NCBI GenBank assembly: GCA_963819655.1
Contig: CAWFXA010000002.1
Span: 288,001-352,000 of the forward strand
Origin: an uncultured Chloroflexia bacterium
GTDB lineage: Bacteria > Chloroflexota > Limnocylindria > Limnocylindrales > CSP1-4
Length of the DNA stretch: 64,000 nucleotides
Direction: 5' to 3'
This document shows, in pieces, positions 37,080-64,000 of this stretch (positions are counted from its first letter, which is position 1; each line of letters starts with the position of its first letter). The translations under genes were made by a program, and so were the position numbers. The notes beneath the pieces are model-generated. The model saw only the letters and a program-made list of their open reading frames with translations. It did no database searches and was not told the origin of the DNA.

Positions 37080-37577
37080 ATGACCCGCGCCACGATCGCG
37101 ACCGACATCGGCGACATCGATATCGAGCTATACGACGAGTCCGCCCCGAAGGCTGCCAAGAATTTCATCGAGCTCGCCAACAAGGGCTTCTACGACGACG
37201 TGATCTTCCATCGCGTCATCCCGGGCTTCGTCATCCAGGGCGGCGACGGTCAGTACGGCAAGAAGTCGTCGCTCGAGCGCGGCCGCGTCGGGACCGGCGG
37301 GCCTGGCTACAAGTTCGAGGATGAGCCGGTCAAGGGCGACTACCAGCGCGGCTCGCTGGCCATGGCTAACTCAGGCCCCAACACCAACGGCAGCCAGTTC
37401 TTCATCTGCACCGACGACCTGAGCGGGCGCCTGCCGAAGAACTACACCCTGTTCGGCGTCGTGACGAAGGGCCTCGACGTAGTCGACAAGATCGTGTCCG
37501 CCCCGCGGGACGCGCGCGACCTCCCGAACGAGCCGGTCGCGATGACCTCGGTGACGATCCACCCCGATCAGGGCTGA
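37080..37577 (+). CDS. ppiB: Cyclophilin-type peptidyl-prolyl isomerase, cytoplasmic
   Basis: FHRVIPGFVIQGGD and AMANSGPNTNGSQFFI motifs. Confidence 0.9.
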   Translation: MTRATIATDIGDIDIELYDESAPKAAKNFIELANKGFYDDVIFHRVIPGFVIQGGDGQYGKKSSLERGRVGTGGPGYKFEDEPVKGDYQRGSLAMANSGPNTNGSQFFICTDDLSGRLPKNYTLFGVVTKGLDVVDKIVSAPRDARDLPNEPVAMTSVTIHPDQG

Positions 37578-49131: not shown

Positions 49132-49219
49132 GAGTGTGACGCTCTAACGAGCGTTCTGACCACCGAATCCGCGCTCGGCGCGGCGCATGATAGACCTTCA
49201 CACCAGACGCCGAAGCTCC
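49132..49219 (+). repeat. Degenerate right-end module (copy R0), no tRNA fragment
   Basis: GAGTGTGACGCTCTAACGAGCGTT...GAATCCG.GCTCG...TAGACCTTC-N12-GAAGCTCC aligns with 63291-63378. Confidence 0.75.
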
Positions 49220-49251
49220 GGCCGAGTGTGAGCCGGTACGTCCTGAGCGGG

Positions 49252-49908
49252 CTACGCTCCCGATTCCGGCGGCAGGAGCGCTGCGATCATCTGCTCGGCC
49301 GCCAGCTCTCCGAATCGCTCCGCTGACCACCCTCGGCGAATCACGAGCAGCTCGTACAACTCGGGCGCTGTGTAGGTCCACAAGATGTCGCGGGCATCGT
49401 TGAGGGTCAGTTCAGTGCGGATGTCGCCACGCTCGAAGAGCGTGCGCGCGTTTATCTCCATCCGTCGCAGCCGGAGTTCATCCACCTCTGCGACCAGCTC
49501 GGCCATCCGCACATCCGACGCGGCTGCGGCGCGGATCAGCAGCACGACCGGCGTGACACGCGATGCCACTTCCGTGATGAACCCGCCCCAACCTCGGATG
49601 AGACTTCGTGGGTCGCCCTCGGTGGTGCGGATCGCATCCGAACGTTCCTCCGCGGGAACCGGGCCTGCGCCCTCGAGACTCTCCAGCCAGATCGCACGAA
49701 CGAGTCCAGGCTTCCCGCCGAAGGATTTGTAGATCGTTTCAGGGGAGACGCCCGCTGCAGCTGCGATCGCGCCGATCGTCGTCCCGGCATAACCGTGGTC
49801 GAGAAGGAGGCGACGAGCCGCCTCGAGAATGTCTTGGCGGGTCCTGTCCGCCTGCTGACGGCGTCGCCGAGAGTCGTACCGACGACGGTCCTTGACTGGC
49901 TCTGACAT
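49252..49908 (-). CDS. TetR/AcrR family regulator
   Basis: RRYDSRRR and GYAGTTIGAIAAAAGVSPETIYKSFGGK HTH. Confidence 0.92.
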   Translation of the reverse strand: MSEPVKDRRRYDSRRRRQQADRTRQDILEAARRLLLDHGYAGTTIGAIAAAAGVSPETIYKSFGGKPGLVRAIWLESLEGAGPVPAEERSDAIRTTEGDPRSLIRGWGGFITEVASRVTPVVLLIRAAAASDVRMAELVAEVDELRLRRMEINARTLFERGDIRTELTLNDARDILWTYTAPELYELLVIRRGWSAERFGELAAEQMIAALLPPESGA

Positions 49909-50250: not shown

Positions 50251-53200
50251 TCACCCAGCTGTTCGAGCCACCCGATTGAGGGCAGCGAGCGCCCGTTCGT
50301 CGTCGGCGACCACGGCGACGCTGCCCTTGCGGGTGTCGAGCTCGATGGCCTTGCGGACCGCGGCGATAGCCTCGTCGTGGCGACCTGCGGCCTCCTTGAC
50401 GTCGGCGGCCGCCCGCAGCGTCCAGGCATGGAACGTCAGGAAGTCGGTCGTCTCGAAGTACGCAAGCGCCTCGCTGATGGCTGCGTCGGCCTCTGCGTGC
50501 CGCCCCTCCGCCGCCCTGACTCGGGCGACGGACCCGAGGGCCACCGCCCGGAGCCAGCCGCCGCCCTCAAGACCGCGTGCCGCGGCCGACGCCGCGAGGT
50601 CGCGATCCCCGGCAAGCCAGGCATTGCGGGCCAGGAAACCGGCGAGCATCGCGCTCGGCGCGCCCATCTGGTCCGTCTGCTCGAGGCCGTCCTTCAGTAC
50701 CTCCATCGCGGCGCGCGCATCGCCGGCCACCTGCTCGACGTCGGCCGCCAGCTCGGAGAGGAGCGCACGTGATGCCGCCTGGCCAAGCTCGTCGAGGATC
50801 GCGAGGCACTTGGCCGCTAACTCGCGCGCCTCGTCGAAGCGGCCCAGCCGGGCGACGAGGTGGGCCATCGCGTGCCACATCCAGCTCGCGACGGTCGCGC
50901 TGTCAGGCTCGGCCCGGAGGACCTCCTCGCACCGCCGGATGCCGTCCTCGACGGGCGTCGGGCCGGTGTTGAGGACGGCCGACAACTGAAGGTAGCCCAG
51001 CGCAAGCTCGCGCCGCCGGCCGCCGCGACGCGCGTGTTCGATGGCCCGCATCGCGGCCGCCTCCGCTTCGGCCCCGCGGCCAGCCTCCCAGTGACACGCG
51101 GACAGCAGGTCCCACGCGCGGGCCAGACCGACCTCGTCAGCCGCGTTCTCGAACAGCGCGACCGCCTCGTGGGCATCGGCCTCGGCTCGCTCACGGAGCG
51201 GACCGAGCTCGCTGGCTACCCCCCAGTGCTCGACTTTGGCGTGTGCTTCGAGGCGCCTGTCGCCCGAAGCCCGGGCGCCTTCGACGACATCCTCGAGGAT
51301 GGCGTAGGCGCGCGCCAGCTCACCGGTCTCGCCGAGAGCATCGGCGAGCTCGATGGATAACCACGGACGCTCCGGGTCAAGGAGCGGGAGGAGGGCGACG
51401 GTCCGCTCCAGGAGGTTGACGGCGGCCCGCATGTCGCCTCGCGCGACCGCGCGGTGGGCCGCCGAGCCGAGCCGACTCGCGGCGCGCCCTGCGAGGACGG
51501 CCGAGCGGCCGTCGTCCAGACCGAGCTCGACCCGGTTGCGATGGGCCTGCTCGAAGTGATAGCCGACGATCTCCTCGACCTCCCCCAGCCGATCGCCGGT
51601 GGTCTCCGCCAGCCATTCGGCGAAGCGTTCGTGGAGGGCCGCCCGCTCGGTCTTCGCTACCGAATCGTAGGCGGCGTCACGGATGAGGATGTGGCGGAAG
51701 CGGTACACGCCCTCATCGGCGAGGCGTGGCGACTCCGGCCGGATGAGATCCTTGCGCACCAGCGATGTCAGGCAGCCGGCCACCCGGGGACGCTCGGGCT
51801 CGGGCGAGAGGTGGCTCACCGCTCGGTCCTCGAATACCCGGCCGACGATCGAGGCCCGTTCGGCGACCCCTCGTTCCGTCGGATCGAGCCGGTCGAGGCG
51901 TGCGGCCAGAAGCGCCTGGATGTTCGGCGGGATCGGGATGCGGTCGAGTCCGTCGGCGACCCCCCAGCGCTCCCCGTCCGCCGGCCGGATGAAGCCGCCG
52001 TCGACGAGCATCGCGATGAGCTCCTCGAGGTACAGCGGGTTCCCCTCGGCCGCGTCGCTGATCCGGTTGCGCAAGGAGGCAGGCAGCGCGGCTCCCGGGA
52101 CCAGCTGATCGATCAGGACGGTTGCCGCGGACTCGCCCAGTGGCTCGAGCAGGATGGCCGTGGCGTTCAAGCGGCCGCCGCCCCACATGGGACGATCCTC
52201 GAGCAGTTCCGGACGCGCCGAGGCGATGATCAGGACTGCCGATCCGCGGATGAGATCGGCCAGGTGCTCGATGAGGTCGAGCAGGGTCGGCTCGGCCCAA
52301 TGGATGTCGTCGACGATAAGGACGACCGGTCGATCGATCGCGACCCATTCGACCAGCCGGCGGAGCGCCCAGAAGAGCTCCTCCTGGCGAGCCCGACCGG
52401 GCTCGAGCCCGAGGACCTCGGCCAGCCGGCCAGCGATCAGCCGGTCCTCGGGCGCCTCAGGGAGCAGGGCATCGAGCCGGCCGCGCGCGGCGGCCGCGTC
52501 GTCGGTCTCCTTGATCCCCGCCACGGCCCGGACGATCTCGATGACCGGCCAATAGGTGATGCCCTCGCCGTACGGCAGGCAACGGCCGCGCAGGACCGTG
52601 ACCCCGTCCGGCAGGGCGGCGACGAATTCGCGCACGAGCCGGCTCTTGCCGACCCCGGCGGTGCCGAAGATCGTCAGTAGCTGGGCCGTCCGGACGCCAA
52701 CCGCCCGATCGAACACGCCGCGCAGGACGCCGAGCTCAGCATCGCGGGCGACCATCGGCCCGTCGGGTCGACGCGGCTGGTCATCCGCGCCAGGGCGGAT
52801 CGCGATGAGGCGTGCGACGGGGACCGGCTCGATCCGGCCACGGACGGCGAGTGGATCGAGGACCTCGAGCTCGGCGACCTCGCGGACCAGTCGGGTCGTC
52901 TCCGGCCCGAGCAGGATCTCGTCCGGGGCCGCCGCCTGCTCGAGTCGCGCGGCGACGTTTACGGTGTCGCCGGTGACGAGCGTCGGCAGGTCCGGTCCGA
53001 CACCGGCGACCACCGGACCCGTGCAGATGCCGGTCCGAACCCGTAACTCGCTCCCGCGCTCGGCGTTCAAGGTGACAAGCGCCTCACGCATCGCGACCGC
53101 GGCGCGCGCCGCCCGGATGGCGTCGTCCTCGTGGACGGATGGCACGCCGAAGACGGCCATGATGGCATCGCCGATGAACTTCTCGACGGTCCCGCCATAG

Positions 53201-53433
53201 CGCTCGATGACATCGCGCATCGCGGCGAAGTAGTCGGTCATGACGTGGCGGACGGCCTCGGGATCGAGCCGCTCGCCCATCGCCGTCGATCCGACGACGT
53301 CGGCGAACAGCACCGTGACCGTCTTGCGGACCTCACGCGGACGGGGCTCGTCGACCACCAGGCGGGCGCCGCATTCGAGACAGAACTTCGCCTGCTCCGG
53401 GTTGTGCGCCTCGCAGTTCGGGCATGCCCTCAC
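50251..53433 (-). CDS. Class III adenylate/guanylate cyclase with zinc ribbon, AAA/STAND ATPase and TPR domains
   Basis: CPNC..CLECG, LFADVVGST, KFIGDA, GDTVNVAARLE, GTAGVGKS, DDIHWA and GNPLYLEE motifs. Confidence 0.92.
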   Translation of the reverse strand: MRACPNCEAHNPEQAKFCLECGARLVVDEPRPREVRKTVTVLFADVVGSTAMGERLDPEAVRHVMTDYFAAMRDVIERYGGTVEKFIGDAIMAVFGVPSVHEDDAIRAARAAVAMREALVTLNAERGSELRVRTGICTGPVVAGVGPDLPTLVTGDTVNVAARLEQAAAPDEILLGPETTRLVREVAELEVLDPLAVRGRIEPVPVARLIAIRPGADDQPRRPDGPMVARDAELGVLRGVFDRAVGVRTAQLLTIFGTAGVGKSRLVREFVAALPDGVTVLRGRCLPYGEGITYWPVIEIVRAVAGIKETDDAAAARGRLDALLPEAPEDRLIAGRLAEVLGLEPGRARQEELFWALRRLVEWVAIDRPVVLIVDDIHWAEPTLLDLIEHLADLIRGSAVLIIASARPELLEDRPMWGGGRLNATAILLEPLGESAATVLIDQLVPGAALPASLRNRISDAAEGNPLYLEELIAMLVDGGFIRPADGERWGVADGLDRIPIPPNIQALLAARLDRLDPTERGVAERASIVGRVFEDRAVSHLSPEPERPRVAGCLTSLVRKDLIRPESPRLADEGVYRFRHILIRDAAYDSVAKTERAALHERFAEWLAETTGDRLGEVEEIVGYHFEQAHRNRVELGLDDGRSAVLAGRAASRLGSAAHRAVARGDMRAAVNLLERTVALLPLLDPERPWLSIELADALGETGELARAYAILEDVVEGARASGDRRLEAHAKVEHWGVASELGPLRERAEADAHEAVALFENAADEVGLARAWDLLSACHWEAGRGAEAEAAAMRAIEHARRGGRRRELALGYLQLSAVLNTGPTPVEDGIRRCEEVLRAEPDSATVASWMWHAMAHLVARLGRFDEARELAAKCLAILDELGQAASRALLSELAADVEQVAGDARAAMEVLKDGLEQTDQMGAPSAMLAGFLARNAWLAGDRDLAASAAARGLEGGGWLRAVALGSVARVRAAEGRHAEADAAISEALAYFETTDFLTFHAWTLRAAADVKEAAGRHDEAIAAVRKAIELDTRKGSVAVVADDERALAALNRVARTAG

Positions 53434-53823
53434 GGGCCGAGTCTAGGCGCGCTGACCGGGCACCGCGCTAGAGGCTTTCATCCCGAGATGTTCGCGTCAG
53501 GGCCTGACGGCCATTGATCTGTCAAAGGAGCTCCCGGCGCAACGTCCCCACCGAGTTGCGAGGAAGCGCGATATGCGCCCGGTAGATCGCCTTATGGCAG
53601 CAGTCAACGACGGTGATCGCGCCGCCTGGGGAGCCTCCTCCGGGTGGTTGTCACGATGAAGAACGGGATCTGCCACGGATTGCTGCCGCCCCACGCATCG
53701 GCCACCCTCGTAGGTGTTCTGGCCGCCGGCGACCGCTCCGAGTCGGCCAATGCCTCGTCGATGTGGACCTCTTCTTCGACCGTGCCGCCCGCGTCCTCGT
53801 CGAGTTCGAACGGATCGTCGCCA

Positions 53824-53888
53824 GACCGCCTGAGCGTTGTGGCCACCCGAGTGGGACCCCGAGCGAAACGGGTGGAGTTTTACGCTCT
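53824..53888 (+). repeat. Left-end module, copy L1
   Basis: 62/65 nt identical to 59222-59286, with the first 49 nt identical. Confidence 0.9.
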
Positions 53889-54462
53889 AGGATTCCTGCT
53901 CGGCCGTGCGCAGTAGGGCCAGGGCGTTCTGGATGCCCTGCTCCAGGACCTCGTCGGCAAGCTTCTGATCGGACAGGGCGCGGGAGACCTGGAGCGTCCC
54001 GACCATCAGGGCGAAGACGCTGAGGGTCCTGACGCGCGCTGATTGGGGATCTTCCGCTGCCAATCGGGCGGCAGCGTCATCGATGATCGCCAGCTGCCCA
54101 TCGGTGTAGGCGCGCTTCACGGCGTCGGACGAGCGGGCGATCTCGTCGAGGAGCGCGGCCGATGGACAGCCGCCCTCGGTGTCGTCGCGGTGCTGAGGCG
54201 ACAGATAGCCGCTAACGATTTCCTCGAGCGACTGCGTGCTGTATCGCTCGCGCTGCTCGCGGAGCTGGTCCGCGACCGTGCTCGCGACGAGATCCTCCTT
54301 CGAGTCGAAGTGGGCGTAGAAGGCGCCGTTGGTCAGCCCGGCGTCGGCCATGAGCGTCGCCACCCCGGAGCCATCGATGCCGTCGCGCTTGAGCCGACGG
54401 CCTGCCGCCTCGATGATCCGCCCCCGCGTCGCCTGCTTGTGCTCTTTCCCGTACCGCGCCAT
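53887..54462 (-). CDS. TetR/AcrR family regulator
   Basis: AGLTNGAFYAHFDSKEDL and HRD...GCP motifs; the stop codon lies inside the repeat site. Confidence 0.9.
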   Translation of the reverse strand: MARYGKEHKQATRGRIIEAAGRRLKRDGIDGSGVATLMADAGLTNGAFYAHFDSKEDLVASTVADQLREQRERYSTQSLEEIVSGYLSPQHRDDTEGGCPSAALLDEIARSSDAVKRAYTDGQLAIIDDAAARLAAEDPQSARVRTLSVFALMVGTLQVSRALSDQKLADEVLEQGIQNALALLRTAEQES

Positions 54463-54499
54463 CTGCGACTCCCTCATTGGGAAGGGTTCGTCCTTCCTC

Positions 54500-54533
54500 T
54501 TGACATCCATTATATGTCATGCGTAATATTACG
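54500..54533 (+). promoter_or_regulatory. Promoter/operator of the SDR operon
   Basis: TTGACA...TAATAT; palindromes TGACAT-N7-ATGTCA and CGTAATATTACG. Confidence 0.6.
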
Positions 54534-54564
54534 ACCATCAGCCAATTAGCGCAAGGAGTCCACG

Positions 54565-55380
54565 ATGACATCAGCCAAGCCAGTCGCGCTCGTGACGGGC
54601 GCCTCCTCCGGCATCGGGAATGCAGCCGCCCTCGCCCTCGTCACGGCCGGTTTCGAGGTGGTCGGCACGAGCCGGAAGACGTCCGGCGTCGCTCCAGTCG
54701 ACGGCGTCACGTTCCTCGACCTCGACGTGACCAGTGACGAGTCGGTTAGCTCGGCGGTCGGGCGCGTGATCGAGCGGTTCGGGCGGCTCGACGTGCTGGT
54801 CAACAACGCGGGCATCGGGGCAGCCGGGGCCGCCGAAGAAAGCTCCGTCGCCCAGGACCAGCGCGTCTTCGATATCAACTTCTTCGGGCTCGTCCGAATG
54901 ACGAAAGCGGTCCTCCCGCACATGCGCGCGGCCGGAAGGGGTCGGATTATCAGCATCTCCTCGGTGCTCGGGCTCGTCCCCGCTCCGTACATGGCCAGTT
55001 ACGCCGCCACCAAGCACGCGATCGAGGGCTACTCCGAGTCGGTCGACCACGAGGTTCGGGAGCACGGCATCCGCGTGCTTCTCGTCGAGCCCGGCTACAC
55101 GCGGACCGGCTTCGACGCCAACGCCATCCAGCCCGACGCACCGTTGCCGATCTACGCGCTGCAGCGGCACGTCTTCGACGGGGTGTTGGCGCGAGGCATG
55201 GCAGACGGCGATGACCCGGCCATCGTCGCCAAGGCGATCGTCGCGGCGGCGACGGACCCGAAGCCGAAGCTGCGCTACACCGCCGGCCCGGCGGCCGGAC
55301 GCGTCAGCGTCCTGCGCCGCTTCGTTCCCACGCGGGTCTTCGACCGGCAGATCCGGAAGCTCAACCGCCTGCCCGCCTGA
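54565..55380 (+). CDS. SDR family oxidoreductase
   Basis: TGASSGIG, VNNAG and YAATK motifs. Confidence 0.92.
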   Translation: MTSAKPVALVTGASSGIGNAAALALVTAGFEVVGTSRKTSGVAPVDGVTFLDLDVTSDESVSSAVGRVIERFGRLDVLVNNAGIGAAGAAEESSVAQDQRVFDINFFGLVRMTKAVLPHMRAAGRGRIISISSVLGLVPAPYMASYAATKHAIEGYSESVDHEVREHGIRVLLVEPGYTRTGFDANAIQPDAPLPIYALQRHVFDGVLARGMADGDDPAIVAKAIVAAATDPKPKLRYTAGPAAGRVSVLRRFVPTRVFDRQIRKLNRLPA

Positions 55381-55417
55381 AGCCAATCCTCAATCAGCCA
55401 TACCAAGGAGACCCGTC

Positions 55418-56278
55418 ATGAGCACCATGAGCATCGACCCCGTCATCACGTCCTACGCGATGGCGCCGGCCCTCACCATCACCGCAGGCGACGCGACCTA
55501 CGCCTATCGCGAGCTCGGACCGAAGGGCGGGATCCCCGTGATCCTCTTTGTCCACCTTGCTGCGACCCTCGACAACTGGGACCCGCGCATCGTCGACCCC
55601 ATCGCCAGAGAGCACCATGTCATCGCATTCGACAACCGCGGCGTCGGCGCCTCCACCGGCCAGGTTCCCGACAGCGTCGAAGCGATGGCCGACGACGCCT
55701 ACGCCTTCATCCGCGCGCTCGGCTTCGACGAGGTCGACATCTTCGCCTTCTCCCTCGGCGGCTTCGTCGCCCAGGCTCTCGTGATCAAGCACCCGGATCT
55801 GGTCCGCAAGTTGGTCCTCACCGGGACCGGCCCTGCCGGAGGGAAGGACATCGACAAGGTCGCCGGCATCACCTACTGGGACATGTTGCGCGCGGCCCTG
55901 ACCCGGTCGGACCCGAAGGAGTTCCTGTTCTTCAACCGCAACGCCACCGGCAAGCCCGCCGCCCGCGCCTTCGTCAACCGACTCACGGAGCGCACCGTCG
56001 ACCGGGACGCCGCGATCTCGGTGAAGGCTTTCCAGACCCAGCTCAAGGCGATCAAGAAGTGGGGTCGCTCGGCCCCTGCCGACCTGTCGAAGGTCACCCA
56101 GCCCACCTTGATCGCCAACGGCGACAACGACCGGATGGTGCCCTCCGTGCTATCCGAGGACCTGCACCGCCGCATCCGCGGCTCCGAGCTCGTGATCTAC
56201 CCCGACTCCGGCCACGGCGGCATCTTCCAGTTCCACGACACCTTCGTCCCGGTCGCCGTCGAGTTCCTCGACCGCTGA
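55418..56278 (+). CDS. Alpha/beta fold hydrolase
   Basis: FDNRGVG, AFSLGG, GDNDRMVP and YPDSGHG motifs. Confidence 0.9.
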   Translation: MSTMSIDPVITSYAMAPALTITAGDATYAYRELGPKGGIPVILFVHLAATLDNWDPRIVDPIAREHHVIAFDNRGVGASTGQVPDSVEAMADDAYAFIRALGFDEVDIFAFSLGGFVAQALVIKHPDLVRKLVLTGTGPAGGKDIDKVAGITYWDMLRAALTRSDPKEFLFFNRNATGKPAARAFVNRLTERTVDRDAAISVKAFQTQLKAIKKWGRSAPADLSKVTQPTLIANGDNDRMVPSVLSEDLHRRIRGSELVIYPDSGHGGIFQFHDTFVPVAVEFLDR

Positions 56279-56305
56279 CCGCACCCTACGAAGGAAGGCA
56301 AGAAG

Positions 56306-57100
56306 GTGGCTACGACACGTCAAGCGGCGAAGAAGCCCCTCGTCTCATCGATCCTGCTGTGGATGCGGACCGATCAGCCCCGTCAGCAAGGCATGGACTA
56401 CTGGAAGGGCCCGCACTCGAAGATCATCTCCGCGACGCCGGGGATGGAGGAGTACCGCCAGATCCATCTGGCGGAGAACAATCCCGGGCTGTGGCCCGCC
56501 ATCCGCGGCGTCGAAACGGTCATCCCCGCCAACCGCCGGATCGACGGGGTCGCCGAGGTCACGTTCACGTCCGTTCTCTCCCCGCTGCGGGGCCGCAAGC
56601 AGACCGGGCTCGCGTACAAGGATGAGGTGAACGTGTTCCGGCGCACCCTGCTCTACGCGGGGCTACCGAACTCGGCCCGCTGGTACAACGTGGCCGGTCC
56701 CGGTGAGAAGGCGGGAGCGCGAAGCCTGATCTACCTCCGCAGGCGGGAAGGCGTCAAGACCGGTGCGTTCCGGAGGTTTCTCACGGACGAGCTTGTTCCC
56801 GCTCTCGTCAAGACAGGAGCCCTGCGGGAACTCCGAACCCAGGTCTTCATGCCCTGGATCAAGAGACTCTGGGACACCCCGAACGTCGCGCACGACAACC
56901 CCGCTGACCAGCGGTTCCAGGCCTCACTGGTCCTCGGCTTCACCGATACCAACGCCCTGTGGACGTTCTTCCGTGGCGGAGAGGTCGCCTCGCTTTCAAG
57001 CAAGTTGCCCGAGTTCGTTTCCGCCGTCCACGCCTACGAGGTCACCGAAGCGCTGACCTACGTGAAGGACGGCAAGATCCTCCCGCACAATCAGACGTAA
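56306..57100 (+). CDS. Hypothetical protein, possible EthD-like dimeric alpha/beta barrel
   Basis: YWKGPH, YRQIH and DGVAEVTF resemble EthD-type segments. Confidence 0.65.
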   Translation: MATTRQAAKKPLVSSILLWMRTDQPRQQGMDYWKGPHSKIISATPGMEEYRQIHLAENNPGLWPAIRGVETVIPANRRIDGVAEVTFTSVLSPLRGRKQTGLAYKDEVNVFRRTLLYAGLPNSARWYNVAGPGEKAGARSLIYLRRREGVKTGAFRRFLTDELVPALVKTGALRELRTQVFMPWIKRLWDTPNVAHDNPADQRFQASLVLGFTDTNALWTFFRGGEVASLSSKLPEFVSAVHAYEVTEALTYVKDGKILPHNQT

Positions 57101-57167
57101 CGGCGCGCCCCGGTCCCGAGCTCCGGGCCACGACGCACGGTGCGATCAGGTGGAGTGCCGGTCATCG

Positions 57168-58011
57168 TCAGGCCTCCGCCACGTCGAGCGAGACGAAGCG
57201 CTCGCGGTTGAAGTCGATGTCGGCCTGCAGGTCGGCGACCTTCTGCTCGGTGGAAGCGATCGAGTCGGCGCCGGCGATGAACCGGCGTCGCGGCGGCTCC
57301 TCGCTGGCGATCGTCACGAGCGCCTGGGCGAGCTTGGCCGGGTCGCCTGACTGGCGGCCATTCTGGGAGGTCCACCAGTCGATCTGGGCAGCGCGTCGCT
57401 CGGCGTAGTCGTCGATCGACAGTTGGGCGAAGTTCGTCGACTCAGGCGTCAGCAGCTCGGTCCGGAAGAAGCCGGGATTGACGATCGTGGTGTGGATGCC
57501 GAACGGCTGCGACCTCCGGCCGCAACGACTCCATCCAGCCCTCGATCCCGAACTTGGACGCCGCGTAGGCCGTCCCGAACTCGAAGCCGGAAAGCCCCGC
57601 GCTCGAGGAGATCGTGATGACGTGACCGGATCGCTGCCGGCGCATCACGGGCAGGACGGCGCGGGTGACGTTCATCGGGCCGATGAGCGTCGTCGCGAGC
57701 TGGCGCTCCATCTGCTCCGGCGTCAGCTCCTCGAAGAAGCCGGCGTTGAAGTTGCCGGCGTTGTTGACGAGGACATCGATCCGCCCGAATCGCTCGACCG
57801 CGGCCTGGACCGCGGCCAAGGCGTCGGCGGGGCTGGTCACGTCGAGCCTCACGGCGAGCAGGTCGGCAGGGTCGCCGACCGCCTTCGTCACCGCCTCAGG
57901 GTTGCGGCCCGTCGCGACCACGGAATTGCTGGCGGCCAGCGCGGCCTTGGCGATGTCGACGCCCATGCCGCGCCCGGCACCCGTGATGAACCAGACCTTC
58001 CTTTCGGTCAT
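57168..58011 (-). CDS. SDR family oxidoreductase, frameshifted
   Basis: WFITGAGRGMG, NNAG and YAASKFG motifs; C-terminus continues in another frame (PGFFRT, PGDPAKLA). Confidence 0.88.
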
Positions 58012-58149
58012 CGGAAATCTCCTTTACGTGGTGGTTTGACCTTCTGCGGGCCATCCAACCACCCGCCATCCCGGTCGGAAAGGCACGCGTTATCGGGGTA
58101 TTGCTGATGCCTGCCTACCAGCGCACGAGGGGCGTAGGGTGGGCGTGAC

Positions 58150-59032
58150 GTGAGCAGCGCCGACGAGATCCGCGAGTTCCTGACGACGCGCCGGGCGAAG
58201 CTGTCCCCCGAGCGCGCCAGCGTGCCGAGGTATGGCCGCAAGCGGCGAGTGCCCGGCCTGCGGCGCGAAGAGGTCGCCCTCCGCGCCGGGATCAGCGTCG
58301 AGTGGTACACGCGCCTGGAGCGCGGCGTCGCGCGGGGCGTCTCCGATGAAGTCCTCGACGCCATCGGCAGCGCGCTCCAGCTCGACGAGGCCGAGCGCGC
58401 CCACCTCGCGGATCTCGTGCGCACCGCGAACGCGGAGCGGCCGCCACGACGAACCTCGACCCCGCAGGGCGTGCGTCCGAGCCTCGCCCGGCATCGTCGA
58501 TGTGATGGGCCCGATCCCGTCCTGCGTGACGAACGGTCGGCTCGACGTCCTCTACGCGAACGATCTCGCGGAGGCGCTCTTCTCGGATGTCTTCCGTGAC
58601 CCCGTCCGCCCGCCCAACTTCGCCCGCTTCGTGTTCCTCGATCCACGAGCGAGGACGTTCTACCGCGACTGGGAGAAAGCTGCCAATGACACCGTCGCAG
58701 TGCTGCGCGCGGCGGCCGGCCGGGACCCGTACGACCGCAGCCTGTCCGACCTGGTCGGGCAGCTCTCGACGCGGAGCGACGAGTTCCGGGTCCGCTGGGC
58801 GGCGCACGATGTCGCGTTCCATCGCACGGCCACCAAGCACATGCACCATCCGCTCGTGGGCGACCTGACCCTCGCCTTCGAGATGCTCGAGCTCCCAGCC
58901 GATCCGGGGCTGTCGGTGCTCATCTACTCCGCCGAGCCCGGCTCACCGTCTGAAGAGGCCATGCGCGAGCTGGCGCGCTGGAGCGAGACGCGGACCAAGC
59001 TCTCGGCAGCTCGGGCCGGATCCGAGACCTGA
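58150..59032 (+). CDS. XRE/MmyB-like HTH regulator, frameshifted
   Basis: RRVPGLRREEVA, YTRLERG, NFARFVFLDP and HHPLVGDLTL motifs. Confidence 0.9.
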
Positions 59033-59063
59033 CCCAGCACGCCGGGCCATCTCGATGCCCGCA

Positions 59064-59180
59064 GAGTTTTACGCTCTAGGAGCGATGTGGCGGCCAAGGC
59101 GTGTGGGCAATGCCTCGGAATAGACCTACAAACCAAAGCCGACGGTCGAGCCGCGCTCAGCAGGTATCATCGCGGTCCGC
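59064..59180 (+). repeat. Right-end module, copy R1 (includes -10 box TATCAT)
   Basis: Aligns with 63291-63409: GAGTTTTACGCTCTA.GAGCG.TGTGGC, TAGACCT...GCCGA.GGTC and GGTAT.AT. Confidence 0.8.
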
Positions 59181-59220
59181 GCGCCTGTAGCTCAGGGGAT
59201 AGAGCGTCGCCTCCGGAGCC
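59181..59220 (+). pseudogene. 5' half of tRNA-Arg(CCG), att-like remnant
   Basis: GCGCCTGTAGCTCAGGGGATAGAGCGTCG-CCTCCGGAGCC matches 63410-63450 with 1 substitution and 1 gap; it stops 3 nt after the anticodon loop. Confidence 0.9.
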
Positions 59221-59221
59221 T

Positions 59222-59286
59222 GACCGCCTGAGCGTTGTGGCCACCCGAGTGGGACCCCGAGCGAAACGGGCTGAGTCTTACGCTCT
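59222..59286 (+). repeat. Left-end module, copy L2
   Basis: Near-identical to 53824-53888; directly follows the tRNA fragment. Confidence 0.9.
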
Positions 59287-59328
59287 GTGCGGAAGACCAC
59301 GGTGCAAGGAGTGGGCTCGCGCTCGGCT

Positions 59329-61614
59329 TCAAGGCGCTCGTCCTCGGTCTGCGAGCGAGTAGAGCCGGATGACTCCATCGCGTCCGGTCGTGTATGCGTC
59401 GCCATTGGGCCCGATCACAGCCAGCTCGAGGCCGCGTCCTGACCACGATGAGATGAGGTCACCAGTGGGGGCGAACAGGTGCAGCCGATCGGGCCCGTCC
59501 GTCGCGTACAGTTCGCCATTCGGCCCGGAAGCAAGCAGCACCGGCTCGCGCAGAAGACCCTCTCCGATCTGTCGGACGATCGTGCCGTCCGGGGCGATCA
59601 CCGTGATCCTCCAGGGTGCCCCGCGACCGCCACTGGCGAAATAGACCGTTCCGTCGGGACCCACGACCACGTTGTTCGTGCACCGATCCCTGACGTCCGC
59701 GCCTCCCGCCAATGTCCGAACGTAGTTGCCTGATTGTTCGAAAACCTGGATCCGGCACGTGGGGTCGTCAACCACATAGACGAGCCCGTCCGGGCCAACA
59801 CTGATGCCGAAGGGACTGACGAACTGGCCGGGCCCTGACCCGAAGGTTCCCCATGACCCGATCATCTCTCGGTCGGCATCGAAGTGCACGACCCGCTGGT
59901 GCTCCGAATCGGCAATGAAGAAGCCGCCATCCGGGAGGAAGGCAACTGCACCCCAGCCATCCCGGTCGGGCTGGACGAGGGCGAGGGCGGCATCACCGGT
60001 CGGCTGCCATGTTTCGACGACTCCTCCGTCACGACCGACGATCACGAACCGGGCACGTGTGGGGTCGGCGATCCACAGCCGCCCGTCTGGTGCGCCGTTC
60101 AGGAAGAACGGCCCCTCGATCCCAAGATCTCGGGCCGTGCGGGCCCACACCTCAACGAGTGCAACGGTCGAGGTGATGATGTGCGCCGACGACGATGGGC
60201 GCTCGGCCGTCGCACTGGAAGCGACCCCTGCGGTGGGCGACGGACTGCTGGCACGAGCTTCGGCGGCGGTCAGCGCGTACACACTCCCATCCTGTGTTCC
60301 AACGATCAGGTGCGCGCCGGCGACTGCGGGCGAGAAGGGGATGCCGTCGAGTAGGAAGGTCCCGAGGACGTCGCCGGTGGCCGCCTCGAGGGCCTCGATC
60401 CCCCCGTGCGAGGCGAGGTACAGCACTCCACCAGCCTTGGTCGGCGATGAGCCGACCTGAACGCCGAGGCTTCGTGTCCATATCTCGGCACCGTCGTCGG
60501 CCCGGAGCGCGACCACGTCGCCGTCGACCGCGGCTGCGTAGACGGTCCCCGTCTCGGGGTCGACGACCGGAGCGACGACTGTCTGTCCGTTTGGCCGCCG
60601 GTGACGCCATATCCCACGGCCGGATTCGAGATCGACCGCGTAGAGAACGCCGCGATTCCCTTCGAGATCAAGGCCTGCGAGCAGGACCTTCTCGCCAGCG
60701 ATGACGGGTGTATCGGTGAAGACCGGCGTCGCAAAGCGCCACAACTCGCGTGCGGTTGGGGAGTCGAAGGCCACGGCGATCCCGACATCGGTCGGGACGA
60801 CGAGGATCGAACCCTGGACCGCGATCGACCGCGTCGAGGGCCCCGGCAGGTCTTCCTGCCAGACGACCTCGTGCGTTTCGAGATCGATGGCCAGAACCTT
60901 GCCGGTCGCGCCCGGGACGGGTCGTCCACGGGACTGTGCCGAAGAGGTCGAGACGTACAGCCGGTCGCCGACGATCGCCGGACTACCGGCAGCGTAGCCA
61001 TCGAGCGGTATTTGCCAGGCGACATGGCCAGTCCGTCGATCCACGGCGACGAGATCCCGATCCTCCGTCCCGACGATCACCAACTCACCGGCCACAGAAG
61101 GCGACGACCAGGCAACGTTCAGATCGGACGACCACAGCTGGACGTGGCGTCGGAGGTCGAACGCTCGGAACTGGCCATCGATCGCTCCCACGTAGGCGAC
61201 GCCGTCCACGATCGCCGCCGACGATACGATCGGACCGGAGAGCGTCGTCTGGAAGTCGATGGTCATGGCCCCACCGGGTCCGGGCCCCGTTACCACGCCG
61301 GTCCTTGCCGCGTCACCGCGGAACGTCGAGCTGTCCGACAGGGGCTCCGATCTCCGGAGGAGCTGGGCGCCCACCGCGGCGATGCCGGCCAAGAGCGACA
61401 TCAGGAGGAGGGCGGTCATCGCCAGCCGGACGGGTCGCGGCAATGCGACGACCTTCGCCATGATCCGGCTTTCGAGCGGGGCGGGCTGCTGCGGGGTGAG
61501 GCGGACCGCGGCCGCGATGGAGTCGCGCAGATCTGCAGGTGCCAGCGTCGCCTGGGGCAGTGCCAGAGATCGGTTCAGCAGCTCCCGTGTCAACGGCGGA
61601 AGGTTCCGGCTCAT
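59329..61614 (-). CDS. Membrane-anchored PQQ-like/BamB beta-propeller plus NHL-repeat protein (putative anti-sigma/sensor)
   Basis: Short N-terminal domain, TM helix, FRGDAARTG, repeated A.D..TG..W blades, then WGTFGSGPGQFVSPFGI. Confidence 0.85.
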   Translation of the reverse strand: MSRNLPPLTRELLNRSLALPQATLAPADLRDSIAAAVRLTPQQPAPLESRIMAKVVALPRPVRLAMTALLLMSLLAGIAAVGAQLLRRSEPLSDSSTFRGDAARTGVVTGPGPGGAMTIDFQTTLSGPIVSSAAIVDGVAYVGAIDGQFRAFDLRRHVQLWSSDLNVAWSSPSVAGELVIVGTEDRDLVAVDRRTGHVAWQIPLDGYAAGSPAIVGDRLYVSTSSAQSRGRPVPGATGKVLAIDLETHEVVWQEDLPGPSTRSIAVQGSILVVPTDVGIAVAFDSPTARELWRFATPVFTDTPVIAGEKVLLAGLDLEGNRGVLYAVDLESGRGIWRHRRPNGQTVVAPVVDPETGTVYAAAVDGDVVALRADDGAEIWTRSLGVQVGSSPTKAGGVLYLASHGGIEALEAATGDVLGTFLLDGIPFSPAVAGAHLIVGTQDGSVYALTAAEARASSPSPTAGVASSATAERPSSSAHIITSTVALVEVWARTARDLGIEGPFFLNGAPDGRLWIADPTRARFVIVGRDGGVVETWQPTGDAALALVQPDRDGWGAVAFLPDGGFFIADSEHQRVVHFDADREMIGSWGTFGSGPGQFVSPFGISVGPDGLVYVVDDPTCRIQVFEQSGNYVRTLAGGADVRDRCTNNVVVGPDGTVYFASGGRGAPWRITVIAPDGTIVRQIGEGLLREPVLLASGPNGELYATDGPDRLHLFAPTGDLISSWSGRGLELAVIGPNGDAYTTGRDGVIRLYSLADRGRAP

Positions 61615-62183
61615 TCCGACACCTCCCGGAGCGCCTTCGCGAGGGCTCGGCGCGCACTGAAGAGACGCCACATGACCGTCCCCGAAGGGACGCGAAGGAG
61701 ATTCGCGATCTCGGCGACCGGTCGGCCTTCGCCGTGATGCAAGGCGAGCACGGTTCGCTGGTCGCCGGACAACCGGCCGAATGCCTGGCGGACGATGTCC
61801 TCGTCGGCCAGCGCTTCGAGAGGCGACTGGCTTGTCGGATGGTCGGCCGGAAGCGAGAGCTCCTCGATCGGGATCTCCCGGACCCGGGCCTTTCGGCGCC
61901 GGAGCAGCATCCGGCACTCGTTCACGACGATCCGATCGAGCCACGCATCGAAGCGCGCGACATCACGGAGTCGAGGGAGTTCTCGCCAGGCTGCCAAGAA
62001 CGCCTCCTGGCATGCGTCGCGGGCGTCCCATTCAGTTCGCAGGATGGCCAGAGCCGTGCGATAGGCTCGGTCGAGCCGAGCGTCGATCAACCGTTCGAAT
62101 GCCTGCACATCGCCGGCGCGGGCCAACTCGACGAGCGAGGCGTCGCTCGTCGAGCCGACCGAGGTGCTCGCGTGTGCCGTCAT
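61611..62183 (-). CDS. ECF-type RNA polymerase sigma factor
   Basis: GDVQAFERL, DARDACQEAF, FDAWLDRIVVNEC and EIANLLRVPSGTV.WRLFSAR motifs. Confidence 0.92.
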   Translation of the reverse strand: MTAHASTSVGSTSDASLVELARAGDVQAFERLIDARLDRAYRTALAILRTEWDARDACQEAFLAAWRELPRLRDVARFDAWLDRIVVNECRMLLRRRKARVREIPIEELSLPADHPTSQSPLEALADEDIVRQAFGRLSGDQRTVLALHHGEGRPVAEIANLLRVPSGTVMWRLFSARRALAKALREVSE

Positions 62184-62244
62184 CGGGTTGCAGTGTGCCC
62201 TCGACGGACGGGTCAGCCGGCGAACAATGGGCAGAGAGCGGAGG

Positions 62245-63105
62245 TCATGGCAACTCCAACAGTCCGGCGACGGCAGGCCATGTGATCTCTGCGACCTCCG
62301 CCTGTCCGCGCACGTTCAGGTGGTTCCGATCGCTGGAGAAATCCTCGGGGCGTTCAATGTACGCGGCGCGAGCTCCGTCGTCCGTCCGGCAATTGGGCAC
62401 CGTGGCGCACACCCGGGCCTGCTCCGTCTCATATTTCTCGATGATGGATGTCAGGGTGTCGGAAGGGTCAGGGTCGCACAGCATCCACGAAGGGGGTCGT
62501 CCGAGCTGTCCGACCACCAGGATCCGTGAGTCGGGTGAGGCCGTGGTTACGACCTGCAAGGCGTCTGCGAGGGCGACACCGAACTCGGGTACGTGCGTGC
62601 GATCGGTCCCGTCGCAGCGGATGTCGCTGTCGATCGTTTGGACTACGACGAGTGCCGGGGTGGGAACAGTTTCGAGAGCGGATCGCGCCTGCCCCGCCAG
62701 CGAAGACGCGGGCGCACCACCTTGCGCAGTGTTGGCAACATGGCCCTCGGTCTCCGGACGGACCGCGACGAGCCGCCGGTAGATGCTGTTGACCTCAGGC
62801 GATGTGCCAGTCGCCCACGAGTTTTCGAGCGCAACCCGACCAGGACGGCTCGGATCGGAGTTCTCACCAGTCAAGCCGGAGTGCCCGATCGCTATGACAC
62901 CGACCGGCTTGCCGGGGTTGGCCGCGGTCGCGGTCGATGTGGCGGCCGGGCCGGCCGCGGCCGATGTGGTAGCCGGGCCGGTCGCGGCCGATGTGGTGGC
63001 CGGGCCGGTCGCGGCCTGGTCTCCGATGTCTGCACTGCGGCAGCCACTGACCGCCAACGCCAAGGCGATGATGGCGGCCACGGTGCCAGCTGATCTTGTG
63101 TTCAT
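62245..63105 (-). CDS. SGNH/GDSL hydrolase-like lipoprotein
   Basis: GGAG RBS, VSGC lipobox, IGHSGLTG (block I-like) and DRNHLN (DxxH). Confidence 0.75.
   Translation of the reverse strand: MNTRSAGTVAAIIALALAVSGCRSADIGDQAATGPATTSAATGPATTSAAAGPAATSTATAANPGKPVGVIAIGHSGLTGENSDPSRPGRVALENSWATGTSPEVNSIYRRLVAVRPETEGHVANTAQGGAPASSLAGQARSALETVPTPALVVVQTIDSDIRCDGTDRTHVPEFGVALADALQVVTTASPDSRILVVGQLGRPPSWMLCDPDPSDTLTSIIEKYETEQARVCATVPNCRTDDGARAAYIERPEDFSSDRNHLNVRGQAEVAEITWPAVAGLLELP
62926..63016 (-). repeat. 27-bp tandem repeat x3.4 encoding an AATGPATTS linker
   Basis: Units start at 62926, 62953, 62980 and 63007 (partial). Confidence 0.85.
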
Positions 63106-63290
63106 GATGTGCTCCGGGGTAGTCCGGATGTGCATCCTTTGCCTCCTGATCGGGTCTCTGCATTCGCAGAGTTCCTTCAGAAGTCCAGATGCGAGGGAGC
63201 ACCGATCCATTTGGCGCTCCTCTGTAAGAAACACGTGCGCCGAGTTGTCGCCGTACGTGCTCCCTCCGCTCGGACCGTTCGGCCGCCGGC

Positions 63291-63409
63291 GAGTTTTACG
63301 CTCTACGAGCGTTGTGGCCGCGGAATCCGTGCTCGCCGCAGCGGCAAGGTAGACCTTCGAACCACAGGCCGAAGGTCCATCCAAGCTCGGCGGGTATGAT
63401 CAGCGCCTC
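63291..63409 (+). repeat. Right-end module, copy R2 (tRNA promoter region, -10 TATGAT)
   Basis: Homologous to 59064-59180 and 49132-49219; contains the inverted repeat GACCTTCG-N10-CGAAGGTC. Confidence 0.8.
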
Positions 63410-63485
63410 GCGCCTGTAGCTCAGTGGATAGAGCGTCGGCCTCCGGAGCCGAAGGTCGCAGGTTCGAATCCTGTCGGGCGCGCCA
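63410..63485 (+). tRNA. tRNA-Arg (CCG)
   Basis: 76-nt cloverleaf, anticodon loop CTCCGGA, GTTCGAATCC, encoded CCA. Confidence 0.97.
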
Positions 63486-63576
63486 GTTCAACCTTTTCGG
63501 GCAGAGCCAGCGCCAATCCGTGCGCGTAGGCCGCCTGAGTCAGCCGGACACCCACGATCTCGGGTGCCAGCGACCG

Positions 63577-64000
63577 TCAGTGGTTCGTCGGCTGCGTGCC
63601 GGAGAGGATGTCTTTGGGTGGCGTGGCCAGACCGAATACCTGATCCAGGAGCGTGGTGACGCACCAATCCACCCAGTCGTCGTGCGGCCAGCCGTACGTC
63701 CCGACGAGGAAGTGGTAGGCGTCCTCGCCAACGTAGAAGAGCAGCAGGTGCGCTGCTCTCTCCGGGTCGAGCCCATCGCGCAGCGGTGCCTTCTTCCGAA
63801 GGATCTCGAGGATGACCCGGTAGCCATCGGCCCGCCAGGCCTCGGATTCCGCCATGACCCTGGCCAGATCGGGATCGTCACTCGCCCGCGCCGCGAGATT
63901 GAGCGGGATCACCCTTGGCATGATCGAGCCGACACCGGTCACCAGGTGGCGAACCGCCTCGGCGATCCCCGAGGCATCGGTCATCGCCAGGTACCACGGC
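63577..64000 (-). CDS. TetR-family regulator, C-terminal part (runs off window)
   Basis: LRDGLDPERAAHLL and LVGTYGW..DDW resemble the C-terminus of the 49252..49908 TetR. Confidence 0.65.
   Translation of the reverse strand, partial: PWYLAMTDASGIAEAVRHLVTGVGSIMPRVIPLNLAARASDDPDLARVMAESEAWRADGYRVILEILRKKAPLRDGLDPERAAHLLLFYVGEDAYHFLVGTYGWPHDDWVDWCVTTLLDQVFGLATPPKDILSGTQPTNH

Follow-up and report, generated by a model that had tools for sequence, protein, structure and literature searches.

When a mobile element targets a tRNA gene, it is usually the 3′ part of that gene that the element carries. Some integrase-less elements, CIMEs among them, have functional-looking attL and attR sites at their ends without recombination genes, and lie in tandem with ICEs at one chromosomal site; they are presumed to depend on the integrase of a related element. 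Use of the 5′ side of tRNA genes by mobile DNA is rare, and it is already on record. Of the 3919 islands in the Islander report (PMC4383910), each of which must hold an integrase, 159 have a 5′ tDNA fragment and 2083 an anticodon-centred attP; tandems of at least two islands occur there in 125 cases and of at least three in 4. In Prochlorococcus, according to the tycheposon preprint (10.1101/2020.12.28.424599), tRNA islands grow by repeated integration, the newer elements pushing the older ones inward.

We analysed a stretch of 64,000 nucleotides (the window) from an uncultured Chloroflexia bacterium. In it, a 5′ fragment of tRNA-Arg(CCG) lies 4.2 kb upstream of the intact gene, on the same replicon and in the same orientation. 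We read this displaced fragment as the scar of the site-specific integration of a cassette-type element that uses the 5′ side of the tRNA gene, most likely catalyzed by a tyrosine integrase of the family that we call P0005, and we put the probability of this reading at about 85%.

The locus resembles the 5′-fragment class of Islander: there is a co-oriented end fragment on the correct side, the crossover falls in the anticodon loop, and the tRNA is restored from attP. By the features that Islander looks for, the window has an intact tDNA with an upstream co-oriented 5′ fragment, the end fragment breaks at a known sublocation, and the site is unoccupied in relatives. No tyrosine integrase lies at 53.8-63.4 kb of the window, however, and one is present only in related elements in other genomes (G090, L145-L147). 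The islands described there split the tRNA by means of a tyrosine integrase, whereas the units in the window encode none; since an integrase is required for each island, that pipeline would reject them. Further differences from Islander are that arrays at this site reach four fragments, that the element also supplies the promoter, about 110 nt of upstream region being copied, and that the host is an uncultured Chloroflexota lineage. With tycheposons, as the preprint (10.1101/2020.12.28.424599) describes them, the locus shares partial tRNAs between elements, the accumulation of degenerate remnants, and the presence of both tyrosine and large serine recombinases at tRNAs. Unlike the elements described there, the units here are mostly integrase-less and have long conserved arms, and we saw no replication or satellite hallmark genes in them.

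Two other systems come close. As in CIMEs, the last unit of the window has both halves of an attachment site (an arm called L2 on one side; an arm called R1, the promoter and tRNA bases 1-41 on the other) and no recombinase inside; it differs in that no helper was found in this genome and that the site is the 5′ part of a tRNA. As in integrons, small recombinase-less units stand in tandem, each ending in a conserved recombination module and the newest at the insertion point, and the cargo includes toxin-antitoxin pairs. In contrast to integrons, there is no IntI beside the site, the module is a composite of about 230 bp with a promoter and half a tRNA rather than an attC hairpin, and cassettes of both orientations occur, with regulators of their own. 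Instead of an adjacent intI and attC hairpins, we found no match to PF00589 near the arrays of six genomes and only slight covariation in the L arm. A search of open-access text for Limnocylindria together with integrase and tRNA, and for wording about 5′ fragments, returned no description of this system. What is distinctive here is the occurrence of long integrase-less arrays together with an integrase clade on the 5′ side.

The displaced fragment and the live tRNA gene

ARAGORN calls tRNA-Arg(CCG) once in the window, at 63410-63485 on the forward strand (Rfam tRNA, 72 bits), and calls no tRNA gene at 59181. On direct reading, the 40 nt at 59181-59220, on the same strand, correspond to bases 1-41 of this tRNA with two differences: T16>G in the D-loop and a deletion of 1 nt in the 5′ strand of the anticodon stem (GTCGGCC to GTCGCC). 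Identity with the tRNA ends past GGAGCC, three bases beyond the anticodon loop, and the fragment passes in an attL-type junction directly into the L2 arm, which starts at 59221. The initial annotation had claimed this extent, the direct switch into L2 and a changed D-loop (AGGGGA against AGTGGA); all three hold on inspection, and only the stem deletion had been overlooked. Decay of the fragment is already under way. The live gene holds the sole copy in the assembly of the 20-mer GAGCGTCGGCCTCCGGAGCC, and no displaced 3′ fragment of tRNA-Arg(CCG) occurs elsewhere in the assembly.

The fragment was also said to have a -10 box of its own. Indeed, a -10-like TATCAT stands at 59165-59170 before the displaced copy and TATGAT at 63395-63400 before the live tRNA, both on the forward strand by direct reading and both 10 nt before tRNA base 1. 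Among relatives, GGTAT(C/G)AT at this distance from the tRNA start is kept in most copies; a sigma-70 consensus scan of 58900-59500 found no full promoter at the displaced copy. Upstream DNA of the fragment and of the live tRNA is 77% identical over 157 nt (E 2.8e-24), and the R modules differ between cassettes, in keeping with the earlier suggestion that the fragment is a different allele and not a fresh duplication.

The two upstream regions share a motif pair, GAGTTTTACGCTCT and GAGCG(A/T)TGTGGC, at 59064-59092 and 63291-63319; we call GAGTTTTACGCTCT box A and GAGCGTTGTGGCC box B. All arms described here read on the forward strand. At 59064-59092, the R2 arm consists of box A (GAGTTTTACGCTCT) followed directly by the box B-like GAGCGATGTGGCG and forms the right end of the cassette that ends at 59220. 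The R1 arm of the last cassette, at 63291-63319, has box A and a box B palindrome (GAGTTTTACGCTCTACGAGCGTTGTGGCC). A third copy, R0, at 49132-49240, is a degenerate R arm with an inverted repeat, cut within the -10 box. On the other side, the L2 arm (GACCGCCTGAGCGTTGTGGCC ... GAGTCTTACGCTCT, 66 nt) occupies 59221-59286 at the left end of the last cassette, and is 94% identical to L1, the left end of an older cassette at about 53820-53888, which stands without a tRNA fragment. R0 is the right end of a cassette older than that of L1. The promoter copy of the cassette ending at 59220 contains an inverted repeat of the tRNA-Arg promoter region, TAGACCTACAAACC..GCCGACGGTC, at 59121-59147 (forward strand); the promoter region from the last cassette, at 63350-63400 on the same strand, has the inverted repeat TAGACCTTCGAACC..GCCGAAGGTC and then TATGAT. 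Since the repeat is also found at native promoters that are cassette-free or outermost (L041, L085), it is part of the copied tRNA upstream region. The window has 4 matches to the 9-mer core of box A, TTACGCTCT, where 0.14 would be expected; 0 of 100 shuffles gave as many as 4, and box A as GAGTYTTACGCTCT has only 4 copies in the 3.49-Mb assembly, all at this locus. The box motifs are probably protein-binding sites. We rejected R1 as an orthologue of the R arm of cassette B (described below) in the relative G064: the 93% match derived from the tRNA and the right flank.

Cassette arrays in the window and its relatives

A search with a 261-nt region found the junction of tRNA bases 1-41 with the L arm in several genomes of the same genus. 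We then ran the pattern CCTCCGGAGCC-N5-GCCYGAGCGT on GTDB species genomes, and it matched 47 contig stretches from MAGs, all Chloroflexota and mostly labelled Limnocylindria/Limnocylindrales; viral contigs gave 0 matches. The L module is conserved for about 66 nt in 48 distinct junctions, and the flanks diverge straight after it. In 48 of 48 junction sequences, identity to the tRNA stops at GGAGCC (plus 0-2 nt) and L begins, which places the crossover in the anticodon arm, as had been proposed. The junction structure is thus lineage-wide.

There are 77 distinct copies of the tRNA 5′ part, comprising 47 fragments fused to L, 29 full tRNAs and 1 that is neither. Box A stands no more than 180 nt upstream in 21 of the 47 fragments and 14 of the 29 full tRNAs. 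It is absent at the other 26 fragment junctions, the outer ends of the arrays that we examined among them, and from singleton tRNAs, while the internal and tRNA-proximal copies in tandem arrays bear an element-specific R arm. From this distribution of box A, the unit runs from an L arm through the cargo to an R arm (box A with box B), and on through a copied tRNA promoter region to tRNA bases 1-41. Arrays with two fragments and a full tRNA occur in G004, G062, G064 and G065, and arrays with four fragments and a full tRNA in G061 and G063.

Comparison of flanks shows where the inserted DNA lies. The left flank of the tRNA in relatives matches the window at about 36.0-40.5 kb. In relatives without an array, the tRNA is 1-2.4 kb from a gene homologous to about 39.1-39.9 kb of the window; in the window this distance is 23.5 kb. 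The same left-flank gene adjoins the full tRNA in G030 (L041) and a fragment in G064 (L085) and in L059. As one and the same flank gene abuts either a full tRNA or a fragment, the DNA was inserted between the fragment and the 3′ part of the tRNA. The initial annotation saw in the live tRNA a chimera that receives its promoter and 5′ half anew with each insertion. The distribution of box A and the left-flank comparison both agree with this, and in the integrase-bearing elements of relatives the integrase adjoins the R arm. The promoter and 5′ part beside the live tRNA are those of the newest unit; within the live gene, bases 1-41 are probably cassette-borne and bases 42-76 chromosomal.

We propose that a circular element of about 4.2 kb (now 59221-63449) underwent site-specific recombination with the tRNA gene, at the anticodon loop or just beside it. 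Its attachment site would have consisted of the R arm, a copy of the tRNA promoter region, tRNA bases 1-41 and then the L arm. Because such a site carries the 5′ side of the tRNA, integration would move the promoter and 5′ part already in place further upstream, where they would remain as a dead fragment joined to the L arm. The tRNA, a single-copy gene, would be rebuilt from the promoter and 5′ part of the element and the 3′ part of the chromosome, and repeated events would produce tandem units, the newest adjoining the tRNA.

The window from 40.5 to 63.4 kb is a stack of such units with older, eroded joints (R0 at 49.1 kb and L1 at 53.8 kb). The last unit, 59221-63449, is about 4.2 kb long, and its three cargo genes all lie on the minus strand. 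These encode an 871-aa protein (59329-61944; Pfam, NCBIfam) that has beta-propeller repeats (PQQ_2, NHL) and, near the N-terminus, a weak anti-sigma match, a 190-aa ECF-type sigma factor (61611-62183; NCBIfam TIGR02937, 8.2e-24), and a putative lipoprotein (62245-63090) with a weak GDSL/SGNH hydrolase match (Pfam E 0.0032, under the curated cut-off), a lipobox-like LALAVSGC and a 27-nt tandem repeat in three copies inside the gene. GC3 of the 871-aa propeller gene is 0.74, against 0.85-0.89 in its neighbours, and the composition of the last cassette suggests a foreign origin. Logan contigs from soil and rhizosphere metagenomes of at least three studies carry genes of this cassette at 90-99% identity. 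Logan contigs from RNA runs also extend across the cargo genes, at low depth and unstranded. Contigs of two runs lead from the 5′ part of the tRNA, at 63450, into an L module, and are ambiguous; the two joints that lead backwards have short sides, of 47 and 57 nt. Contig joints that skip about 4250 nt carry other anticodon arms and are tRNAs of other organisms.

The unit that ends at the fragment has a composite cargo (53887-59063, Pfam). Its cassette B genes, at 53887-57100, comprise a TetR regulator, an SDR, an alpha/beta-hydrolase and a 264-aa ORF, and are fused to the remnant of another cassette with a truncated SDR (57442-58011) and an MmyB-like regulator (58232-59032). Cassette B cargo is common to G064, G113 and other MAGs at 85-94% identity; 57101-59050 has no counterpart in these genomes. 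In G064, a close relative with flanks 91-96% identical, a fragment, cassette A and a second fragment precede the homologous L arm. Since G064 has a fragment before L where the window has 195 bp of unique DNA, the fragment of L1 was lost secondarily; the degenerate R0 at 49132-49240 likewise indicates that the array reaches further left, with eroded joints. Cassettes A and B are both integrase-less, and their order is A, B, tRNA in G064 and B, A, tRNA in G113.

Integrases on the 5′ side of tRNA genes

P0005 (L113:8535-9527, minus strand) is the tRNA-proximal gene of the last unit of G090. This 330-aa protein matches PF00589 with an E value of 4.8e-31 over profile positions 2-171 of 172, and motifs of the R..HxxR..Y type can be read in its translation as GMRRGE, HLFRH and SRYG. 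Its nearest solved relatives are XerC-like, XerA and XerD. The gene is divergent from the tRNA, with its start codon about 30 bp from box A of the R arm, and the element that bears it is 27.8 kb long and bounded by a fragment with L. Relatives of P0005 at 74-100% identity are divergently upstream of tRNA-Arg(CCG) in 4 of 4 cases, with two copies of box A between; these integrase-bearing Arg elements are those of G090 and L145-L147. Another relative, at 66% identity, sits upstream of tRNA-Gly.

Among the 131 genomes of the genus, 41 have a match to P0005. We cut out 12 P0005 loci, namely the query itself and relatives at 48-60% identity, two of them cut by contig ends. A tRNA lies 175-230 bp from the integrase start, on its own 5′ side, at 10 of the 12 loci, that is, at all 10 uncut ones; these tRNAs are Gly (three), Lys (two), Met (two), Leu, Pro and Arg. 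The Gly elements (G031, G104) and Lys elements (G079, G012) also have a displaced 5′ fragment, followed by an L-like arm, 6-28 kb off. In the integrase-bearing elements that we tested (Arg, Gly twice, Lys twice), the 5′ fragment is broken just past the anticodon loop in 5 of 5. From these positions, we conclude that the lineage has a clade of Xer-like tyrosine integrases that appears to use the 5′ side of tRNA genes.

By analogy with these autonomous relatives, in which the gene starts about 30 bp from the R arm, a Xer-like integrase of the P0005 family would most likely be the catalyst for the cassettes as well. As there is no integrase in or near the cassettes of the window, catalysis by this family is an extrapolation from relatives; both catalysis itself and the exact crossover bases are what we infer from the sequences. 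Pfam and NCBIfam searches found no recombinase in the units of the window. In its own assembly, the nearest match to PF00589 is at least 380 kb away or on another contig, and there is no P0005 homologue at E≤1e-20. The other integrases of the assembly follow the classical pattern and lie at tRNA-Thr and tRNA-Gln, on the 3′ side. In six genomes with arrays, the contig that bears the array has no PF00589 match, or none within 380 kb; there are at least 150 PF00589 matches genus-wide, mostly Xer-like among the matches listed. All four integrase-bearing Arg elements have an R layout that differs somewhat from that of the window, with two copies of box A close to the tRNA, and we saw no cognate integrase for the R type of the window. 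With no integrase in the units and no cognate in the assembly, the units of the window are non-autonomous. Since the assembly is 91% complete, a helper could be missing from it.

Two candidates for the catalyst were set aside. One is a 391-aa ORF (P0001) next to an L arm of G061, a possible hidden recombinase; it matches no family, and by eye its sequence reads as PIN-like. Its neighbour is an HTH_17 protein, and the two are likely a toxin-antitoxin or defence pair. A role for Xer/dif was judged unlikely: the assembly has no canonical dif-like pattern, and the GC-rich core of the tRNA is unlike dif.

Competing readings and consequences

The units of the window would be either stranded remnants or cassettes moved by the integrase of a helper, and we do not choose between the two. 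In the first case, every unit was once an autonomous island whose integrase was deleted, and the arrays are graveyards in which integrase-less units neither move now nor moved in the past. We rate this somewhat short of even odds. Erosion in the window is what it would lead one to find: the fragment of L1 is lost, R0 is cut, an SDR is truncated, and the displaced fragment has two mutations. All four integrase-bearing Arg elements are tRNA-proximal, hence newest, as expected if older units decay, and the model of island growth in the tycheposon preprint (10.1101/2020.12.28.424599) agrees as well. However, deletion has left no trace of an integrase where we looked. At E≤0.01, tblastn found no remnant of P0005 in the window or its own assembly and no integrase remnant in 17 array and flank loci of relatives. 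The 137 ORFs that lie no more than 2 kb from the junctions in the 47 stretches include no match to PF00589, the sole recombinase-type exception being one rve/AAA_22 transposon. In addition, many units are just 1.2-5 kb long with both arms well conserved, and the swapped order of cassettes A and B between G064 and G113 needs extra duplications beyond vertical descent and deletion.

In the second case, the integrase-less units are a shared pool of helper-dependent cassettes, shuffled at tRNA-Arg(CCG) by a tyrosine integrase acting in trans. Each small unit keeps a complete attachment site of about 230 bp (R, promoter, tRNA 1-41, L). We offer this tentatively, as possible but well short of probable.

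A different function for the fragment itself is highly unlikely. It could be argued that fragment and L form a gene for a noncoding RNA, a tRNA-half/L hybrid driven by the orphan promoter and kept for its own sake, given that a -10-like box still precedes the fragment and that 48 junctions show strong conservation of the L module. The predicted structures do not favour this: fragment plus L folds no better than shuffled sequences (z -0.28), and RNAalifold on 23 L modules gives -8.8 kcal/mol with compensatory change in 2 of 18 pairs. A search of 53000-64000 with Rfam at E≤1 returned only the tRNA and a chance snoRNA match, and a scan of 58900-59500 for promoters and terminators found 0 of each. 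The fragment in the window has a D-loop change and a stem deletion, and L1 exists with neither fragment nor promoter. Conservation of L is more readily accounted for if L is an attachment-site arm, one seen in Gly and Lys elements too. Transcription from the orphan promoter is possible.

On the 3′ side, the tRNA of the window is met by the remnant of a large serine recombinase (LSR; 63486-63577, minus strand), the last 45 codons or so of a gene that converges on the tRNA and overlaps it (G000:C2:351427-351561, 87% identical to residues 340-384 of P0004). An LSR or its remnant converges on and overlaps the 3′ end of tRNA-Arg in many members of the genus, with a match in 68 of 131 genomes; in G007, G088 and G106 the gene beside the tRNA is full-length and encodes about 500 aa, with Resolvase and Recombinase domains. 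This LSR might then be the fixed recombinase of the array, which like IntI would sit beside the attachment site and insert and remove cassettes at the anticodon loop. Every full-length orthologue with a tRNA in view abuts that tRNA, no other recombinase consistently adjoins the arrays, and the inverted repeat of the R arm contains tRNA bases 38-48 and, on the other strand, a T-loop-like GGTTCGAA. In L120, however, an 85%-identical LSR orthologue has next to it no more of the tRNA than its last 17 nt, beyond which the DNA is unrelated and has inverted TTATGGC ends. We read this site as the probable attP of an element whose crossover falls in the T-loop rather than the anticodon loop, so that the LSR makes separate use of this tRNA, from the 3′ side. 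Comparison of the LSR attachment site with the cassette junction gave no match: L120 shares just those 17 nt, and its inverted repeats differ from the L and R boxes. Intact copies are mostly in singletons (G007, G088, G106) and arrays mostly have remnants (window, G024, G004, G061), while autonomous elements have a tyrosine integrase exactly at the R arm. We therefore consider a role of the LSR in moving the cassettes exceedingly improbable.

Least credible of all, with a chance close to nil, is that the feature arose by segmental duplication on the spot or is an artefact of assembling a repeated tRNA region: public short-read contigs do break at the repeated tRNA part, so that the junction is hard to assemble, but the two copies differ (77% upstream identity), 48 junctions, taken from many independent assemblies with long contigs among them, all break at one and the same base, and the intervening DNA varies between genomes.

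Integration of cassette-type elements on the 5′ side of tRNA-Arg(CCG) accounts for the 23-kb variable region beside this single-copy gene. In this soil lineage of Chloroflexota, a clade of integrases appears to work on the unusual 5′ side of tRNA genes, and the promoter of an essential tRNA would then come from a mobile element and not from the chromosome. Island finders that need an integrase, or that seek 3′ fragments only, would miss these arrays. If the units are indeed mobilised by a helper, the locus would be a natural site of cassette exchange outside the integron paradigm. Soil Limnocylindria would then have an integron-like exchange of regulatory and defence modules (ECF sigma factors with anti-sigma propellers, STAND ATPases, toxin-antitoxin pairs), in which each exchange would also swap the promoter of an essential tRNA. 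The conserved arms and P0005-type integrases would give a defined site-specific recombination system from an uncultured phylum.

Opposite order and recurrent cargo of cassettes

The order in which two integrase-less cassettes, A and B, precede the tRNA gene is reversed between the locus from the close relative G064 (L106) and that from another relative, G113 (L130). Each cassette is 82 to 89% identical between these two genomes. We found that the same kinds of cargo keep returning across the junction loci L054 to L100 and the arrays L101 to L107: ECF sigma factors with PD40, WD40 or PQQ propeller proteins, PemK and PIN toxin-antitoxin genes, DUF4143 ATPases, and enzymes under TetR regulators. 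STAND-type ATPases (AAA_16 or NB-ARC, with TPR and LuxR or cyclase domains) also recur in L054 to L107.

Joints and interruptions of the cassette units

At the joint of the L arm L1 (window 53625-53888), no tRNA fragment, the displaced bases 1-41 of tRNA-Arg, stands ahead of the arm. The 195 bp of unique DNA before L1 replace a stretch that in G064 runs from an ABM-family gene through a first fragment and cassette A to a second fragment. In G064, the cassette A cargo comprises a nucleoside hydrolase, an amidohydrolase and an ECF sigma factor. In the composite unit that includes the cassette B cargo, a short-chain dehydrogenase ORF on the minus strand (57442-58011; 189 aa) matches its profile at positions 1-168 of 195 only and so is probably truncated at the 3′ end. 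A truncated short-chain dehydrogenase fits a deletion joint at which cargo of cassette B meets what is left of another cassette.

The boundary of an older cassette lies at 49132-49240, where a degenerate R arm (GAGTGTGACGCTCTAACGAGCGTTCTGACC, followed by the promoter inverted repeat) is broken inside the -10 box. This truncation is shared with G064. The TetR gene directly after the degenerate arm (49252-49908) is extra relative to that genome.

An R arm is interrupted in another relative, G061, by a two-gene transposon (L101:10575-13285, on contig C4) inserted between box A and the -10 box. It carries a gene with rve and Mu-transposase C-terminal domains, followed by an AAA_22 gene. Some transposons with genes of this type, in the Tn5053 and Tn552 families, target recombination sites.

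Variation in flank and cargo genes

A pyridoxal-dependent decarboxylase gene on the minus strand (37568-39028) lies within a stretch of about 1.5 kb that several relatives lack, although their left flank is otherwise syntenic; the window's 37.6-39.08 kb has no counterpart in loci L046, L049 and L051. Three tandem 27-nt repeats (62925-63005) inside a putative lipoprotein gene encode a 9-residue repeat directly past the signal peptide. In one public-run contig, 54 nt are skipped here (62934 to 62989), which means that two of the three units are missing.

Two sides of the tRNA gene

In the R and L arms, box B (GAGCGTTGTGGCC) and, in reverse complement, box A (TAGAGCGTAAAAC) both look like the stretch ATAGAGCGTCGGCC of tRNA-Arg itself, in a comparison with tRNA bases 19-32. 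Among the relatives' tyrosine-integrase elements (L154-L158), Lys-element boxes share AGAGCAG with tRNA-Lys, and Gly-element boxes have a weaker likeness to tRNA-Gly. Accessory sites of this kind may mimic the left core half-site.

The 3′ end of tRNA-Arg is overlapped by a convergent large serine recombinase gene in the window and in L044, L108, L109 and L120. The window retains a remnant on the minus strand, the last ~45 codons only (63486-63577). Past the recombinase orthologue in L120 stand only the final 17 nt of the tRNA, and the DNA beyond them has inverted TTATGGC ends. This site looks like an attP from a serine-integrase element aimed at the T-loop. Together, the convergent recombinase and this attP-like site would mean that different recombinase families use the two sides of a single tRNA gene.
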